A DNA stretch of 64,000 nucleotides from Escherichia coli O157:H7 (GTDB lineage: Bacteria > Pseudomonadota > Gammaproteobacteria > Enterobacterales > Enterobacteriaceae), in NCBI RefSeq assembly GCF_013167455.1, contig NZ_CP038328.1; one strand, 5' to 3'. This document shows positions 12,646-49,347 of this stretch, piece after piece; positions within the stretch are counted from its first letter, which is position 1; the number at the start of each line of letters is the position of its first letter. Made by a program: the position numbers and the translations under genes. The notes beneath the pieces are model-generated. The model saw only the letters and a program-made list of their open reading frames with translations, searched no databases and had not been told where the DNA came from.

Positions 12646-15798
<3,153 letters not shown>

Positions 15799-15816
15799 TA
15801 CAACGTGTAATCACTA

Positions 15817-15841
15817 AGGCCGCGTAAGCGGCCTTTTTTAT
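15817..15841 (+). terminator. rho-independent terminator after acrB (GGCCGC-GTAA-GCGGCC followed by TTTTTTA)
   Basis: Hairpin plus T-run read directly 19 nt after the acrB stop. Confidence 0.8.
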
Positions 15842-16343
15842 GCATAACCTACGAACATTAAGGAGTAATTGAACCACCAACTCAGGATCTCATACGAAAA
15901 CCAGTATTAACCACGTATAAAATTCATAAAAAATACTGATTGTTAGTTAATTTATATTAAGTAGCGCTAATAGATTTAATAATCCATAATCATTTAGAGG
16001 CTATTCTTAATTATTTGCGGTAATTCTTTATTCATTCCTCGGTTATTACGTCATATTCAGAGCAATCCTGGTATTAGTGTCACCAATTTCATCTGGCGAT
16101 AATCCTGAAATGTTATGAACAGTTCGAGCAAACTGCTTTTACCTGCTGCGGGTTGGTGCTAGTATGAAAAAGTGAGCCCTGTCCCGCTTCCTTCCTAATT
16201 GTAATTTTTCGTAATAATGCGATGAAAACCTGCAAAGAGTGGCTTATAGTTAAGCTAACAAACGAGAGGGCAAGTCCAGGTCAGTAAGTTTTTTCCATCC
16301 CGAAAGGTGTCCGTTAGTTCAACCGCTAAGAAGGGGACGCGTT

Positions 16344-16718
16344 ATGGATGAATACTCACCCAAAAGACATGATATCGCACAGCTTAAGTTTCTCTGTGAA
16401 ACTCTGTATCATGACTGCCTTGCAAACCTTGAAGAAAGCAATCATGGCTGGGTTAACGACCCAACCTCGGCGATCAACCTCCAGTTGAATGAACTGATTG
16501 AGCATATTGCGACCTTCGCACTTAATTACAAAATTAAGTATAATGAAGACAATAAGCTCATTGAGCAGATCGACGAATATCTGGATGACACCTTTATGTT
16601 GTTCAGTAGTTATGGTATTAATATGCAGGATCTTCAGAAATGGCGGAAGTCAGGTAATCGACTATTCCGTTGTTTTGTCAATGCGACGAAAGAGAATCCT
16701 GCGAGTTTATCTTGTTAG
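16344..16718 (+). CDS. tomB: Hha toxicity modulator TomB (YbaJ), 124 aa
   Basis: [40 protein letters not shown]..; immediately upstream of hha. Confidence 0.92.
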
Positions 16719-16743
16719 AATTATTACAACCATGGGTAGAAGT

Positions 16744-16962
16744 ATGTCCGAAAAACCTTTAACGAAAACCGATTATTTAATGCGTTTACGTCGTTGCCAG
16801 ACAATTGACACGCTGGAGCGTGTTATCGAGAAAAATAAATACGAATTATCAGATAATGAACTGGCGGTATTTTACTCAGCCGCAGATCACCGCCTCGCCG
16901 AATTGACCATGAATAAACTGTACGACAAGATCCCTTCCTCAGTATGGAAATTTATTCGCTAA
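16744..16962 (+). CDS. hha: haemolysin expression-modulating protein Hha, 72 aa
   Basis: Internal start [72 protein letters not shown] inside the 154-aa ORF. Confidence 0.93.
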
Positions 16963-17133
16963 TAAATAATTCGCTTTCGGAGCTATAACCGGCTGTTTAT
17001 TAAGAATTTTATACTTTTTCGCCATGAAGACATACCCTATGTGATCTTTATCACACAGATGTAATGGGAACGTTCTCTTCACTGACTTTTCGTCTTACTG
17101 TGTTGCCGCATTTTCAGCAACCGGAGGTCAGTA

Positions 17134-17685
17134 ATGAGCACAGAAAAAGAAAAGATGATTGCTGGTGAGTTGTATCGCTCGGCAGATGAGACGTTATCTC
17201 GCGATCGCCTGCGCGCTCGTCAGCTTATTCACCGATACAATCATTCCCTGGCGGAAGAGCACACATTACGCCAGCAAATTCTCGCTGATCTATTCGGTCA
17301 GGTGACAGAGGCTTATATTGAGCCAACGTTTCGCTGTGACTATGGCTATAACATTTTTCTCGGTAATAATTTTTTCGCCAACTTCGATTGCGTGATGCTT
17401 GATGTCTGCCCTATTCGCATCGGTGATAACTGTATGTTGGCACTAGGCGTTCATATCTACACGGCAACACATCCCATCGACCCTGTAGCACGTAATAGCG
17501 GTGCTGAACTGGGGAAACCCGTCACCATCGGTAATAACGTCTGGATTGGCGGACGCGCGGTCATTAACCCTGGTGTGACCATTGGTGATAACGTCGTGGT
17601 AGCCTCAGGTGCAGTTGTCACAAAAGATGTCCCGGACAACGTTGTCGTGGGCGGTAATCCAGCCAGAATAATTAAAAAATTGTAA
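17134..17685 (+). CDS. maa: maltose O-acetyltransferase (hexapeptide-repeat acyltransferase), 183 aa
   Basis: [31 protein letters not shown].. with left-handed beta-helix hexapeptide repeats. Confidence 0.93.
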
Positions 17686-35341: not shown

Positions 35342-35614
35342 TTAGTTTACCGCGTCTTTCAGTGCTTTACCTGCACGGAAGCTCGGTACTTTAGCGGCAG
35401 CGATGGTGATCTCTTTACCGGTCTGCGGGTTGCGGCCAGTACGGGCAGCACGCTCTTTAACGGCAAAAGTACCAAAACCTACCAGTGCTACATCATCCCC
35501 TTCTTTCAGAGATTCAGTTACGGAAGCAATAATAGCATCTAACGCACGGCCAGCCGCAGCTTTAGAGATATCAGCCCCTGCAGCAATCTTGTCGATCAAT
35601 TGAGATTTATTCAC
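35342..35614 (-). CDS. hupB: DNA-binding protein HU-beta, 90 aa
   Basis: [90 protein letters not shown]. Confidence 0.97.
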
Positions 35615-35760
35615 TCTTCTCTTCCTCTTTATAATTTATATCGCACTTGAATCCTTCAAGGTACGAACGCGCAGCAGTTATATCAGGCCAGCCATCCCCT
35701 TACAACACCCCTTAATAAGGGCAAGCCCGATCCGCCATCTAACTTAGCGAGACAAAAAAA

Positions 35761-35790
35761 GGCTGGCAAGCCCGAATTAGCCTGCCAGCC
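35761..35790. terminator. hairpin GGCTGGCA..TGCCAGCC flanked by A-run and T-run; bidirectional terminator at the lon 3' end
   Basis: Inverted repeat with AAAAAAA upstream and CTGTTTTT downstream on the plus strand, about 30 nt after the lon stop. Confidence 0.7.
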
Positions 35791-35822
35791 CTGTTTTTAT
35801 TAGTGCATTTTGCGCGAGGTCA

Positions 35823-38177
35823 CTATTTTGCAGTCACAACCTGCATGCCAGACGGTTCATTTTGCAGCGCCAGAGTCAGAACTTCCTCAATGCGCTTCAC
35901 AGGATGAATGTCCAGATCGGCAATTACGTTGTCAGGAATCTCTTCCAGATCGCGTTTATTTTCGAACGGAATTAACACTGTTTTAATCCCGCCGCGATGC
36001 GCTGCCAGTAGTTTTTCTTTCAAACCACCGATCGGCAGTACCTGACCACGCAGAGTGATCTCACCGGTCATTGCCACATCGGCACGAACCGGGTTACCGG
36101 TCAGGCAAGAAACCAGCGCGGTGCACATAGCAATACCGGCACTCGGACCATCTTTCGGCGTCGCACCTTCCGGTACGTGGACGTGGATGTCACGTTTTTC
36201 GTAAAAATCAGGGTTGATCCCCAGTTTTTCCGCACGCGCGCGAACCACCGTTAACGCAGCCTGAATAGACTCCTGCATCACTTCGCCGAGCGAACCGGTA
36301 TAGGTCAGTTTGCCTTTACCCGGAACACATGCGGTTTCAATGGTCAGCAAGTCACCGCCCACTTCCGTCCACGCCAGACCGGTTACCTGACCGACACGGT
36401 TTTCGTTATCAGCGCGACCATAGTCGAAACGCTGAACACCAAGGTAGTCATGCAGGTTGTCGCCGTTAATTTCGATATGTTTTAATGACTTATCGAGCAG
36501 TAACTGCTTAACCGCTTTACGGCACAGCTTGGAGATTTCACGCTCCAGACCACGCACGCCCGCCTCACGGGTGTAGTAACGAATAATGCCGATAATGGCG
36601 CTATCGTCGACGGTCAGCTCACCTTTTTTCAGTGCATTACGTTCAATCTGCTTCGGCAGCAGGTGACGTTTGGCGATGTTCAGTTTTTCATCTTCGGTAT
36701 AACCGGAGAGGCGAATCACTTCCATACGATCCAGCAGTGGTGCCGGAATGTTCATGGAGTTCGACGTCGCGACAAACATCACGTCGCTGAGATCGTAATC
36801 CACTTCCAGGTAGTGATCGCTGAAGGCCACGTTCTGCTCTGGATCCAGCACTTCAAGCAGTGCGGAAGCCGGATCGCCACGCATGTCAGAAGACATTTTG
36901 TCGATCTCATCGAGCAGGAACAGCGGGTTTTTAACGCCCACTTTCGCCATTTTCTGGATCAATTTACCCGGCATAGAACCGATGTAAGTACGGCGGTGAC
37001 CACGGATTTCCGCTTCATCACGCACGCCGCCCAGCGCCATACGGACATATTTACGCCCGGTGGCTTTGGCAATGGACTGACCCAGGGAGGTTTTACCTAC
37101 CCCCGGCGGCCCTACCAGGCAAAGGATCGGTCCCTTGATTTTGTTGACACGGCTTTGAACCGCAAGATACTCAAGGATGCGATCTTTCACGCGCTCCAGA
37201 CCATAATGGTCGGTATTAAGGATTTCCTGCGCCTGACGCAGGTCTTTTTTGACCTTGCTGCGCGCATTCCACGGTACCTGTACCATCCAGTCGATATAAC
37301 CACGCACTACGGTCGCTTCTGCCGACATCGGAGACATCATTTTCAGCTTCTGCAACTCTGCTTCCGCTTTCTCTTTTGCCTCTTTCGGCATCTTCGCCGC
37401 GTCGATTTTGCGCTTCAGGGCTTCGTTTTCGTCCGGCGCGTCGTCCATCTCACCGAGTTCTTTCTGAATAGCTTTCATTTGCTCGTTCAGATAGTACTCA
37501 CGCTGGGATTTCTCCATCTGCTTTTTAACGCGGTTGCGAATGCGTTTCTCAACCTGCAGCAGATCGATTTCCGATTCCATCATTGCCATCAGATATTCCA
37601 GACGTTCGTTAACGTCGGACATCTCCAGAACGGACTGTTTGTCAGCCAGTTTCAGCGGCATATGTGCAGCAATGGTATCCGCCAGACGCGCCGGATCGTC
37701 GATGCTATTCAACGACGTCAGCACTTCTGGTGGGATTTTTTTGTTCAGCTTGATGTAGCCTTCGAACTGGCTGATTGCAGTACGCACCAGCACTTCCTGT
37801 TCTCGCTCATCAATGGTCGGCGACTCCAGATACTCCGCCTTCGCAGAAAAGTGTTCGCCATTGTCAGAGAGCGCAGAAATACGCGCGCGCTGTAACCCCT
37901 CGACCAGCACTTTGACGGTGCCGTCAGGCAGTTTCAGCATCTGCAATATAGAGGCCACGGTCCCGACGGTGAAAAGATCGTTTACACCCGGCTCATCCGT
38001 TGAAGCTTCTTTCTGCGCGACCAGCATAATTTTTTTATCATGGTCCATCGCCGCTTCCAGACAACGGATAGATTTTTCCCGCCCGACAAATAAGGGGATG
38101 ACCATGTGCGGATAAACCACCACATCGCGCAGCGGCAATACGGGGATTTCAATGCGTTCAGAACGCTCAGGATTCAT
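35823..38177 (-). CDS. lon: ATP-dependent Lon protease, 784 aa
   Basis: Internal start [44 protein letters not shown]..; Walker [10 protein letters not shown]; catalytic Ser in PKDGPSAG. Confidence 0.97.
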
Positions 38178-38260
38178 AGAGCTCTCTCTTAGTTTAATTT
38201 CCGCCAGGTAATCAGATGACACGACTGTGCTTCACGCCATCTATTAACATGTACGTCAGT

Positions 38261-38289
38261 ATATGGGGATGTTTCCCCCACATTCAACG
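38261..38289 (-). promoter_or_regulatory. sigma32-type promoter upstream of lon (-35 TTGAATG, -10 CCCCATAT on minus strand)
   Basis: Minus-strand GTTGAATGTGGGGGAAACATCCCCATAT about 85-110 nt upstream of the lon start; clpX terminator hairpin GGGGAG..TCCCCC nearby at about 38312-38331. Confidence 0.6.
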
Positions 38290-38364
38290 CCGAGAATAGA
38301 GGAAAAATTAAAGGGGAGATAAAATCCCCCCTTTTTGGTTAACTAATTGTATGGGAATGGTTAA

Positions 38365-39639
38365 TTATTCACCAGATGCCTGTTGCGCTTCCGGCTTGCC
38401 ATAAATCAGCAACGGTTTGCTTTGACCATCAATTACCGACTCGTCGATAACCACTTTTTCGACATCTTCCATGGACGGCAGATCGTACATGGTATCGAGC
38501 AGTGCGGCTTCTACGATGGAACGCAGGCCACGGGCACCGGTTTTACGCGCCATCGCTTTCTTAGCGATAGCATCCAGCGCCTCGTCACGGAATTCCAGAT
38601 CCACGCCTTCCAGATTAAACAGCGCCTGATACTGCTTGGTCAGGGCGTTTTTCGGCTCTTTGAGGATCTGAATCAGAGCTTCTTCGCTCAGTTCATTCAA
38701 CGTTGCGACAACCGGCAGACGACCAATAAACTCAGGGATAAGACCAAACTTGATCAGATCTTCCGGTTCAACCTGCGCCAGCAGCTCGCCTTCGCTTGCT
38801 TTGTCGGACTTCGCTTTTACCGTCGCGCCAAAACCAATGCCGGAGCCGGTTTCTACACGATGGGAAATCACTTTATCCAGACCGGCAAACGCACCGCCAC
38901 AAATAAACAGGATCTTAGAGGTATCAACCTGCAAGAATTCCTGCTGCGGATGTTTACGTCCACCTTGCGGTGGAACAGCAGCTACCGTACCTTCGATCAG
39001 TTTCAACAGTGCCTGCTGTACGCCTTCACCGGAAACGTCACGGGTAATAGACGGGTTGTCTGACTTACGAGAAATCTTGTCGATTTCATCGATGTAGACA
39101 ATCCCGCGCTGCGCTTTCTGTACGTCGTAATCGCACTTTTGCAACAGCTTCTGAATGATGTTTTCAACGTCTTCGCCCACATAACCGGCTTCGGTCAGCG
39201 TGGTTGCGTCGGCCATGGTGAACGGGACGTCCAGCAGGCGCGCCAGCGTTTCAGCCAGCAGCGTTTTACCGGAACCGGTCGGACCGATCAGCAGAATGTT
39301 ACTTTTGCCCAACTCGACGCCATTGCTGGTATCGCCGTTGCGCAGACGTTTGTAGTGGTTGTATACCGCGACCGCCAGCACTTTTTTCGCCTGTTCCTGG
39401 CCGATAACGTAATCGTCCAGGTGGTTACGAATTTCATGCGGCGTCGGTAGCGCACTGCGTTCACGATGCGGTGCAACTTCTTTAATCTCTTCGCGAATGA
39501 TGTCGTTACATAAATCAACACATTCGTCGCAGATATACACGGATGGACCGGCAATCAGCTTGCGCACTTCATGCTGGCTTTTGCCGCAAAAAGAGCAATA
39601 CAGCAATTTGCCTGAGCCATCTTTGCGTTTATCTGTCAT
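38365..39639 (-). CDS. clpX: ATP-dependent Clp protease ATP-binding subunit ClpX, 424 aa
   Basis: [41 protein letters not shown] (zinc-binding domain); Walker A GPTGSGKT. Confidence 0.97.
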
Positions 39640-39764
39640 GGGTCAAAACCTCTTCTTTGTTCTTTGTGCCGCACACGACGACGCAAATGCCATTCTCAGG
39701 CGCAAGCCGCTTACAGCGTTGTGCCGCCCTGGATAAGTATAGCGGCACAGTTGCGCCTCTGGCA

Positions 39765-40388
39765 TCAATTACGATGGGTCAGAATCGAATCGACCAGACC
39801 GTATTCCACCGCTTCAGGGGCGGAAAGGAAGCGATCGCGCTCGGTATCACGTTCAATCTGTTCTAATGATTGACCCGTATGAAGCGCCATAAGTTCATTC
39901 ATACGCCCTTTAACTTTCAGAATTTCACGGGCATGAATTTCGATATCGGTCGCCTGGCCCTGGTAGCCGCCCAACGGTTGGTGAATCATCACGCGCGAAT
40001 TCGGCAGGCAAAAACGTTTACCTTTTGCCCCTGCGGTCAGCAAGAAAGCGCCCATCGAGGCCGCCTGGCCCATACAGATGGTGCTGACATCAGGCTTGAT
40101 AAACTGCATGGTGTCATAGATAGACATCCCGGCAGTGATCACCCCGCCTGGGGAGTTAATGTACAGATAGATATCTTTTTCTGGGTTTTCTGCTTCCAGG
40201 AACAGCATCTGAGCCACAATCAGGTTAGCCATATGGTCTTCAACCTGGCCAGTCAGAAAAATGACGCGTTCCTTAAGTAGACGAGAATAGATATCAAAAG
40301 AGCGCTCACCACGTGAGGTCTGTTCAATGACCATCGGCACCAGCGCCATATGGGGTGCAAAGTTATCTCGTTCGCCGCTGTATGACAT
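39765..40388 (-). CDS. clpP: ATP-dependent Clp protease proteolytic subunit ClpP, 207 aa
   Basis: [45 protein letters not shown].. Confidence 0.97.
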
Positions 40389-43518: not shown

Positions 43519-44994
43519 ATGTCCAGTCAATATTTACGTATTTTTCAACAGCCGCGTTCAGCCATATTGCTGATCCTGGGTTTTGCTTCCGGGCTACCGC
43601 TCGCCCTGACATCCGGCACCTTACAGGCCTGGATGACGGTCGAGAATATCGATCTCAAAACCATTGGTTTCTTCTCTCTGGTAGGCCAGGCTTACGTTTT
43701 TAAATTCCTCTGGTCACCGCTGATGGACCGCTACACGCCCCCATTTTTTGGGCGGCGGCGCGGTTGGCTGCTCGCCACGCAAATCCTGTTATTAGTCGCC
43801 ATTGCGGCGATGGGTTTTCTCGAACCAGGCACCCAACTCCGCTGGATGGCGGCGCTGGCGGTGGTGATCGCTTTTTGCTCTGCCTCCCAGGATATTGTCT
43901 TCGATGCGTGGAAAACCGATGTGCTCCCGGCAGAAGAACGTGGTGCGGGCGCGGCAATCAGCGTTCTGGGTTACCGTTTAGGGATGCTGGTTTCCGGCGG
44001 CCTAGCCCTGTGGCTGGCAGATAAATGGCTGGGCTGGCAGGGCATGTACTGGTTGATGGCGGCGCTGTTGATCCCCTGTATTATCGCGACGTTGCTTGCA
44101 CCAGAACCAACCGACACCATTCCTGTGCCCAAAACGCTGGAACAAGCGGTTGTTGCACCTCTGCGAGATTTCTTTGGTCGCAATAATGCCTGGCTTATTT
44201 TGCTTCTTATCGTGCTGTATAAGCTGGGCGACGCATTCGCCATGAGCCTGACAACCACGTTTTTGATTCGCGGCGTCGGGTTTGATGCGGGTGAAGTAGG
44301 CGTGGTAAACAAAACGCTTGGCTTACTAGCGACCATTGTTGGCGCATTGTACGGTGGGATTTTGATGCAGCGCCTGTCACTGTTCCGGGCACTGCTGATT
44401 TTCGGCATTTTACAAGGTGCGTCTAACGCTGGTTACTGGCTGCTGTCGATTACTGATAAGCATCTCTACAGCATGGGCGCAGCCGTCTTTTTCGAAAACC
44501 TCTGTGGCGGGATGGGCACATCAGCCTTTGTCGCGCTGTTAATGACGCTATGTAATAAGTCATTTTCCGCTACTCAATTTGCCCTGCTCTCAGCGCTTTC
44601 TGCTGTAGGGCGAGTTTATGTCGGCCCCGTGGCGGGTTGGTTTGTTGAAGCACACGGCTGGTCGACATTCTATCTATTCTCCGTCGCCGCTGCCGTACCA
44701 GGGCTTATTTTGCTGCTGGTTTGCCGCCAGACGCTTGAATATACACGAGTAAATGACAACTTTATCTCCCGTACCGCATATCCGGCAGGTTATGCCTTTG
44801 CCATGTGGACACTGGCGGCGGGCGTCAGCCTGTTGGCCGTGTGGTTACTGCTATTGACGATGGACGCGCTGGATTTGACGCACTTCTCTTTCCTGCCTGC
44901 TCTGCTGGAAGTCGGGGTTTTAGTCGCCCTTTCTGGCGTCGTGCTTGGTGGTTTGCTGGATTATCTGGCGCTACGAAAAACGCATCTGACGTAA
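43519..44994 (+). CDS. ampG: muropeptide (anhydromuropeptide) permease AmpG, 491 aa
   Basis: MSSQYLRIFQQPRSAILLILGFASGLPLALTSGTLQAWMTVENIDLKTIGFFSLVGQAYVFKFLWSPLMDRY..; MFS-like multi-TM. Confidence 0.95.
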   Translation: MSSQYLRIFQQPRSAILLILGFASGLPLALTSGTLQAWMTVENIDLKTIGFFSLVGQAYVFKFLWSPLMDRYTPPFFGRRRGWLLATQILLLVAIAAMGFLEPGTQLRWMAALAVVIAFCSASQDIVFDAWKTDVLPAEERGAGAAISVLGYRLGMLVSGGLALWLADKWLGWQGMYWLMAALLIPCIIATLLAPEPTDTIPVPKTLEQAVVAPLRDFFGRNNAWLILLLIVLYKLGDAFAMSLTTTFLIRGVGFDAGEVGVVNKTLGLLATIVGALYGGILMQRLSLFRALLIFGILQGASNAGYWLLSITDKHLYSMGAAVFFENLCGGMGTSAFVALLMTLCNKSFSATQFALLSALSAVGRVYVGPVAGWFVEAHGWSTFYLFSVAAAVPGLILLLVCRQTLEYTRVNDNFISRTAYPAGYAFAMWTLAAGVSLLAVWLLLLTMDALDLTHFSFLPALLEVGVLVALSGVVLGGLLDYLALRKTHLT

Positions 44995-45453
44995 TCTGTA
45001 AATATTATTTAGCTGTAGTAATCACTCGCCGTAATTATTACGGCTAAATAAACATCAGCATCGCTTATTAATATTTGTTCTTTTGTGCGGCTTAGCGTTT
45101 GGAAATTATTGGCGCCATTTATAAATTCTATTTTTCTTACACGATTCAGCTAATGAGTCTTTATTTTCTCACCACCAAGTTGTCACTCCAATGATAATTA
45201 TTTGTTAAATAATTGTTTTATTTCGCATTGATTATACCAATTGCCCGTCCAGACTTCTTCTGCACTCCCCTTTTGTTATAACGCCCTTTTGCAACAGCTT
45301 CTTAAAATCAACCTGATATGTTTTGCAACATATGTGACCTGACAGCCAAATCCAAGTAACAGGAATTTAATCATGTTTACAGTAATGTAACCTTCCCGTA
45401 AAATGCCCACACATTTTAAACGCCACCAGATCCCGTGGAATTGAGGTCGTTAA

Positions 45454-46401
<948 letters not shown>

Positions 46402-46410
46402 AGGGGTTGA

Positions 46411-49347
<2,937 letters not shown>

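Follow-up and report, generated by a model that had tools for sequence, protein, structure and literature searches.

We analysed a 64,000-nucleotide stretch of the Escherichia coli O157:H7 chromosome (NZ_CP038328.1; hereafter the window), which runs from adk/htpG to ribH in reversed orientation relative to the reference, with a focus on two small genes at positions 16344–16962. We are highly confident that this region is the chromosomal, core-genome tomB-hha operon, and we read it as encoding an H-NS co-silencer and its redox modulator, not a mobile toxin-antitoxin (TA) cassette. The locus is already known in detail, the gene calls are right and the finding as such is ordinary; the annotation is correct but, alone, changes nothing about this well-studied locus. 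What the present analysis contributes is a conserved promoter and terminator, an argument from plasmids against a classical TA system, a candidate site for the small RNA (sRNA) HnrS at 16733–16742, and the recognition of the window's effector gene as espY3.

The gene pair encodes TomB and Hha

In the open reading frame (ORF) list of the window, tomB (ybaJ) occupies 16344..16718 and encodes a 124-amino-acid (aa) protein, the modulator or “antitoxin” of Hha. It is followed at 16744..16962 by hha, which encodes a 72-aa H-NS-binding co-silencer, called a “toxin” if overproduced, and is nested in a longer mechanical ORF (16498..16962). Both genes start with ATG and lie on the plus strand, as do all features below unless stated otherwise, and the RefSeq annotation places them at identical positions. 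The original prediction, made from the sequence, had placed a tomB-hha pair with a 72-aa Hha at 16344–16962 and a 25-nt gap between the genes. These details hold: the ORFs lie at exactly these coordinates, the family matches are far beyond chance, and the gap measures 25 nt (16719–16743, AATTATTACAACCATGGGTAGAAGT).

TomB matched the Pfam YbaJ family (PF10757; E = 1e-65, 220.1 bits, cut-off 25) and, over residues 1–121, the NCBIfam TomB equivalog NF007948 (E = 3.8e-70, 234 bits, cut-off 108). Hha matched the Pfam HHA family (PF05321; E = 8.2e-40, 135.3 bits, cut-off 25) over residues 13–69 of 72, and the NCBIfam Hha family (E = 1.7e-50, 169.1 bits, cut-off 90). Comparison with proteins of known structure gave the same assignment: Hha is identical to the E. 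coli structures 1JW2/2MW2 (PDB) at 72/72 residues and near-identical to Salmonella Hha in its complex with H-NS (4ICG, E = 3.8e-44), while TomB matched the Yersinia YmoB structure (2MN2, E = 2.3e-50). Hha thus scores above the curated HHA-domain threshold and, at about 70 aa, has no DNA-binding domain, and the TomB/YbaJ-family gene lies immediately 5' of, and co-oriented with, the Hha-family gene.

The residues implicated in published work are also in place. Hha contains E25 and D48, the acidic residues needed for H-NS binding (PMC4519777), and its single cysteine, C18, whose role was described in PMC5155140. In TomB, K15, L17, C18, E19, C25, N49, E53, A56, E78, D81, D82, F84, F108, C110, F111 and C124 are all present. 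The pocket around the buried Cys18 (K15, L17, C18, E19, F108, F111) is therefore complete, with Cys25 as the second buried cysteine, and the Hha-contact set (N49, E53, A56, E77/E78, D81, D82, F84) is kept, with a conservative D for E at position 77. The orthologous modulator/Hha-family pair ymoB-ymoA of Yersinia enterocolitica (2MN2, 2K5S; Hha against YmoA, E = 3.7e-34) provides the reference for these sites: both the C18 pocket and the Hha-contact residues of YmoB are kept in TomB, whereas TomB has four cysteines (18, 25, 110, 124) against two in YmoB (18, 117), and D instead of E at position 77.

In K-12, tomB-hha (b0461-b0460, formerly ybaJ-hha) has the same gene order, gene lengths, 25-nt gap, promoter hexamers and neighbours (acrB and maa), and the Hha and TomB sequences are identical to those of the window. 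Between the stop of acrB and the start of maa (15799–17133, 1335 nt) we counted 7 differences from K-12 MG1655. The spacer accounts for 4 of them and tomB for 2, both synonymous, while hha is unchanged and the gap differs at 1 position. This last difference, A in K-12 and G in the window at 16734, is the only notable one. Because both proteins are identical to their K-12 counterparts, the published biochemistry transfers directly to this strain, and the studied properties of Hha and TomB should apply unchanged in it. Hha is likewise predicted to form a complex with the N-terminal domain of H-NS and to co-silence AT-rich genes in this strain. The role of H-NS co-regulator that had been proposed for it agrees with PMC2408971, PMC5155140 and PMC3686432. 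The association of Hha with the chromosome depends entirely on H-NS/StpA, and Hha is needed chiefly where H-NS covers acquired coding sequence (PMC3686432); in enterohaemorrhagic E. coli (EHEC) it represses or helps to silence LEE1/ler in the enterocyte effacement locus (LEE) (PMC4764244; preprint 10.1101/2025.11.27.690950).

The locus is fixed in chromosomes and TomB is essentially absent from true plasmids

Many O157:H7 chromosomes match the 1335-nt interval at 100% identity, and among 5426 complete E. coli genomes 5424 contain it, with one copy in each. The order acrB-tomB-hha-maa is conserved in Salmonella, Enterobacter and Klebsiella, which together with E. coli make up the four genera compared below; in these three the gap between tomB and hha is 26–27 nt. 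Providencia keeps the pair alone, without acrB, flanked by mltD and ybaY and with a gap of 72 nt.

We then searched 72,556 plasmid records (PLSDB) with Hha and TomB by tblastn. Hha homologues were found on at least 5000 records, mostly conjugative, at 54–68% identity, whereas TomB homologues were found on 14, ranging from 119 kb to 5.4 Mb and all non-mobilizable or merely mobilizable. In each of four TomB records that were opened, the gene had the neighbours that it has on chromosomes: three records showed acrB and maa, and the Providencia record mltD and ybaY. Conversely, four plasmid hha loci from different incompatibility groups, pO157 included, had no YbaJ-family neighbour by Pfam or BLASTP. 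Small ORFs 5' of plasmid hha were considered as cryptic TomB analogues and discarded, as they gave no Pfam YbaJ match and no BLASTP similarity. Plasmid Hha homologues (IncI2, IncK2/Z, IncF, pO157 and others) thus have the same HHA domain and, presumably, the same H-NS-partner role; at the four loci examined, they stand alone and no gene of the TomB/YbaJ family adjoins them. Because such homologues are abundant on plasmids and TomB is essentially absent from true plasmids, Hha-family proteins are routinely carried without TomB. The survey is a simple comparative argument for a regulator with its modulator over an addiction module.

Two side observations emerged from these searches. Several PLSDB “plasmids” with tomB, for example NZ_OL790696.1 (4.8 Mb), NZ_CP134663.1 (4.9 Mb) and CP125156.1 (5.4 Mb), are chromosome-sized or contain acrB and maa; tomB-bearing records in this database are probably chromosomes, or fragments of them, that were mislabelled, and would inflate plasmid counts of core genes. 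On the pO157 plasmid, an Hha homologue with 54.5% identity is encoded at 47588–47797 (NZ_CP017250.1), beside a gene of the thermonuclease family and the FinO/RepA region and without TomB, so an O157:H7 cell with pO157 has more than one Hha-family protein.

A conserved terminator and promoter separate tomB-hha from acrAB

acrB ends at 15798, and tomB starts after an AT-rich spacer of 545 nt (15799..16343), with a GC content of 38% overall and about 30% at 15800–16100. After acrB, the terminator scan identified an intrinsic terminator (15816..15841) with the stem GGCCGC/GCGGCC and a T run; across the four genera the stem does not vary, whereas the loop does. Towards the other end of the spacer, the promoter scan identified a sigma-70 promoter for tomB-hha (16222..16250), composed of ATGAAA (16222–16227), a 17-nt spacer and TATAGT (16245–16250), with both hexamers invariant in the four genera. 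Apart from the terminator, the hexamers and one further block at 16197–16216, the spacer is mostly unalignable between genera. This 20-nt block, AATTGTAATTTTTCGTAATA, lies just 5' of the -35 hexamer, contains GTAAT twice, 10 nt apart, and is invariant in the cross-genus alignment except for one C/A position; it may serve as an UP element or as a site for a regulator.

Published data agree with this promoter. Shimada et al. (PMC3946193) list the same hexamers for tomB-hha, and their table for genomic SELEX (systematic evolution of ligands by exponential enrichment) assigns an HNS label to the acrB-tomB spacer. Garcia-Contreras et al. (PMC2408971) found that a fragment from -198 to -1 has promoter activity that is repressed by Hha. 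The promoter at 16222–16250 falls within this fragment, and one of their primers corresponds to window positions 16146–16165, except for a known single-nucleotide polymorphism. Both studies support co-transcription of tomB and hha, with promoter activity mapped upstream of tomB. The layout of the locus fits one operon: the genes are small, neighbouring and co-oriented, a conserved promoter lies upstream, and between them there is an unstructured gap with no terminator.

Judged by these signals, tomB-hha would be a transcription unit of its own, separate from acrAB. The pair had been described as lying directly downstream of acrAB; it is indeed the next transcription unit, but because of the conserved terminator after acrB, with the 545-nt spacer behind it, the phrase describes position only.

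Other candidate signals in the region were less clear. A hairpin in the 5' untranslated region of tomB that would sequester the Shine-Dalgarno sequence (CAUCCC with GGGGA) was not supported: its paired bases are all invariant and show no covariation, its folding is no stronger than that of shuffled controls (z = -0.04), and it is absent in Providencia. A scan of 15700–17300 against Rfam by E-value returned no known RNA element. Downstream of hha, the terminator scan gave no convincing terminator, and the region is not conserved across genera. At 17040–17055, some 80 nt upstream of where maa starts, it contains a palindrome that fits the CRP consensus perfectly, TGTGATCTTTATCACA, and that the terminator scan flagged as a minus-strand “terminator”; Salmonella and Klebsiella retain its half-sites, although the spacers differ, and in Enterobacter the half-sites are degenerate. 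Behind it, at 17066–17077, lies another conserved block that resembles a palindrome, GGGAACGTTCTC.

The 25-nt gap contains the hha ribosome-binding region and a candidate HnrS site

The gap (16719..16743) consists of a conserved block and the Shine-Dalgarno region of hha. The block, AATTATTACAA (16719–16729), spans the 11 nt that directly follow the tomB stop and is invariant in the four genera, while synonymous sites in the flanking genes vary, which suggests that it may be a functional RNA or DNA element. The terminator scan found no terminator in the gap. The junction RNA is predicted to be unstructured, folding more weakly than shuffled controls (z = +1.24), and on this result we rejected a hairpin that would couple or occlude hha translation.

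The G at 16734, which is A in K-12 and BL21, creates an ATG in frame with hha four codons 5' of its start (16732..16734). We regard a longer Hha (MGRS-Hha) initiated there as unlikely, since no Shine-Dalgarno sequence precedes this ATG and it is absent in K-12, Salmonella, Enterobacter and Klebsiella; the annotation and the solved structures, which begin with MSEK, also disfavour it. An exact 57-mer with G at this position occurs in 4157 of 5423 E. coli genomes, so that K-12 and BL21 carry the minority allele. We therefore discarded the idea that G is an EHEC-specific adaptation to HnrS, as the majority allele is found in genomes of all kinds.

HnrS was described in a 2025 preprint (10.1101/2025.11.27.690950) as a multicopy sRNA from prophages of EHEC and enteropathogenic E. 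coli, 66 nt long and bound by Hfq. It was reported to pair with the hha ribosome-binding site (AGAAG, within the validated seed) and to repress Hha about 10-fold in EHEC; compensatory mutations support this pairing, and the work is not yet peer reviewed. The preprint also states that HnrS is perfectly complementary to the last 15 nt of mazF. We used this property to recover a candidate sequence, taking the last 15 nt of K-12 mazF and scanning for the complement across viral contigs. Twenty viral contigs shared one common context at the mazF complement, ending in a stem-loop and a T run, and the 66 nt up to the T run gave a terminator-bearing candidate that carries the 15-nt complement, ATAACAATAATAATCTTCTACCCAATCAGTACATTACTGCTGTGACTCCAACACGGCAGTTTTTTT. 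It is present in 543 of 5426 E. coli genomes in 1–5 copies, with O157:H7, O26 and O111 among the matches listed, and in four copies in a strain matching this window. One candidate HnrS locus lies at NZ_AP018488.1 2109963–2110087, with three other places in that genome; it is unannotated in RefSeq.

Within the candidate, CUUCUACCCA is a perfect 10-bp complement of UGGGUAGAAG, the hha ribosome-binding region at 16733..16742, which on the basis of the ribosome-binding site given in the preprint we take as the probable HnrS pairing site. With the K-12 allele (A at 16734), the perfect run shortens from 10 to 8 bp, and the duplex computation indicated a loss of about 5 kcal/mol. Finding the site by duplex energy alone was not feasible, as the hha site (-16.8 kcal/mol) did not rank with the top windows of the 64 kb.

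espY3 is a candidate trans target of Hha and H-NS

The acquired effector-like gene that had been pointed out elsewhere in the window is real. The ORF at 60009..61580 is annotated as espY3 (ECs0472/Z0521), the sole gene of O-island 26 (OI-26), and encodes a translocated type III secretion system effector with pentapeptide repeats. It is present in 936 of 5426 E. coli genomes and has a GC content of 32.5% (minimum 24.7%), compared with 52–57% in its flanks and 0.512 (as a fraction) in the window. The GC content drops below 40% in only four stretches of the window, two of which make up the tomB-hha locus, the others being the cyoA-ampG spacer and espY3. The cyoA-ampG intergenic region (44901–45600) lies on the cyo promoter side.

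With a markedly higher AT content than its flanks and a presence that varies from strain to strain, espY3 has the properties of xenogeneic DNA. By annotation and composition it would be a textbook candidate for a gene that H-NS covers within its coding sequence; genes of this class depend most on Hha. The expression evidence is indirect. In an O157:H7 RNA-seq study (PMC3667801), espY3, ler and LEE effectors were up after curing of pO157_Sal, a plasmid with hha and stpA homologues, although complementation with hha was carried out for espF and espH only; in another O157 transcriptome espY3 was unresponsive (PMC5931665). A literature search for control of espY3 (ECs0472/Z0521) by hha or hns found no direct evidence. 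On balance, silencing of espY3 by Hha/H-NS in trans seems to us plausible, an even call.

Weighing the alternatives

That tomB-hha might be a bona fide addiction or stress-suicide cassette, with growth arrest or killing upon antitoxin failure as its main role, as in mobile type II systems, is suggested by its architecture: two small co-oriented genes 25 nt apart with the antitoxin first, as in mazEF and relBE, which are likewise bicistronic and autoregulated and whose second gene is toxic if overproduced. Overproduced Hha is indeed toxic, with TomB attenuating the effect and the promoter under autoregulation (PMC2408971); the growth arrest is neutralised by YbaJ/TomB or YmoB (PMC2408971, PMC5155140), and the pair is classed as the founding type VII TA system (PMC8610362; PMC5155140). 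It was moved there because Marimon et al. (PMC5155140) observed only transient contact between TomB/YmoB and Hha by nuclear magnetic resonance, with promoted, oxygen-dependent oxidation of Hha Cys18 to SOxH that unfolds Hha (see also PMC8610362). Unlike type II pairs, therefore, TomB and Hha form no stable complex, neutralisation proceeds by oxidation, and the toxin is a co-silencer, not a nuclease or poison. Toxicity has been reported only for overexpressed Hha and arises indirectly, by way of prophage lysis genes and of proteases, with Lon and ClpXP tied to it (PMC2408971). Deletion in strain CFT073 caused no persister or biofilm defect, only a competitive defect in bladder colonisation (PMC3464220). 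The locus is neither patchy nor mobile: a distribution in which both genes travel together, typical although not formally required of TA systems, is not what we found, since the pair sits at a fixed, syntenic chromosomal position and the plasmid loci show that Hha-family proteins are tolerated without TomB. We therefore consider the cassette reading quite improbable. The label “toxin-antitoxin-like” given in the original prediction fits the literature (PMC2408971, PMC5155140) but is weaker than it sounds, as the locus is fixed in the core genome and plasmid Hha homologues lack TomB. The genes hupB, lon, clpX and clpP are also in the window (35342–40388, minus strand), a matter of core-genome synteny.

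The reading of the pair as one operon for a co-silencer and its modulator has two further competitors, which concern expression and placement. Transcription of hha mainly from its own promoter inside tomB, which would free the genes from obligate co-expression and make their ratio variable, is favoured by a promoter-like site at 16515..16544 (TTCGCA-18-TATAAT), the best sigma-70 match of the region (10/12), and by an RNA polymerase holoenzyme site that PMC3946193 reports between tomB and hha without giving hexamers. Such promoter-like matches are no more frequent than expected, however (4 found, 4.4 expected from shuffles), the -10 element decays to TATGCA in Klebsiella so that the site is only partly conserved, tomB codon constraint confounds even that conservation, and the literature handles tomB-hha as one operon (PMC2408971); we rate this alternative as rather unlikely. 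Far less credible still is a reading in which placement matters, with tomB-hha coupled in cis to acrAB through read-through or shared control, or favouring the nearby espY3. The pair is co-oriented and directly follows acrB, the gene order is kept in four Enterobacteriaceae genera, and espY3 is AT-rich, acquired and elevated after curing of the plasmid with hha and stpA homologues. Against this stand the strong conserved terminator and the spacer with its own conserved promoter, the Providencia pair without acrB, and the fact that Hha is diffusible and recruited by H-NS genome-wide (PMC3686432). As for espY3, it lies 43 kb away with dozens of core genes in between, the cured plasmid also carried stpA and the complementation covered other genes, and the second transcriptome showed no response. 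Since any link to espY3 acts in trans, the shared window and the 43 kb of core genes are uninformative. The closeness to acrAB and espY3, which had been thought worth noting for regulation, thus has no regulatory meaning in itself, as Hha affects AT-rich DNA in trans, via H-NS.

No result speaks against the identification of the two genes. Several points weigh against parts of the picture that we favour, the co-silencer and its redox modulator expressed as one operon and targeted by HnrS in EHEC. The site at 16515–16544 and the polymerase site between the genes leave room for an hha-only transcript. The weight of TomB-driven relative to spontaneous oxidation is debated in PMC5155140, where a cysteine-free YmoB keeps some activity. 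The duplex between the HnrS candidate and hha (-16.8 kcal/mol for the single-stranded part) is unexceptional, with 81-nt sliding windows of the same 64 kb reaching -22.1 kcal/mol; because this energy is unremarkable, the functional claim for HnrS rests on the preprint experiments, and the sRNA sequence used here was inferred by us and not taken from that paper.

Proposed mechanism and implications

The identities, coordinates, conserved residues, promoter, terminator, distribution and complementarity to the HnrS candidate determined here can be combined with the H-NS binding, Cys18 oxidation, autoregulation and HnrS repression described in the literature. Transcription would start at the conserved sigma-70 promoter (16222–16250) in the AT-rich, HNS-labelled spacer and run through tomB and the unstructured 25-nt gap into hha. 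Hha, which has no DNA-binding domain of its own, would bind the N-terminal domain of H-NS/StpA via E25 and D48 and strengthen H-NS silencing, mainly over AT-rich, horizontally acquired coding sequence and, in EHEC, including LEE1/ler; it would also repress its own promoter. TomB, a four-helix bundle, would not sequester Hha but contact it transiently, promoting Cys18 oxidation with oxygen and destabilising Hha, and in this way set the amount of active Hha per cell. In EHEC, the multicopy prophage sRNA HnrS would additionally pair with the hha ribosome-binding site (16733–16742) and lower Hha translation.

Taken further, the tomB-hha junction in EHEC could be the hub of a three-layer circuit that joins HnrS, H-NS silencing of the LEE and of AT-rich islands such as espY3, and an oxygen input through TomB. 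We put this forward tentatively, as an unlikely possibility. The link to espY3 is a cheap, testable hypothesis, and the 25-nt gap noted in the original prediction holds the site at which a prophage sRNA is reported to counter silencing. If the circuit exists, the drop in Hha would lift H-NS silencing of the LEE and of single-gene AT-rich islands, for example espY3 (OI-26), and, with a 10-bp seed for the G allele and 8 bp in K-12, laboratory K-12 would under-report HnrS control.

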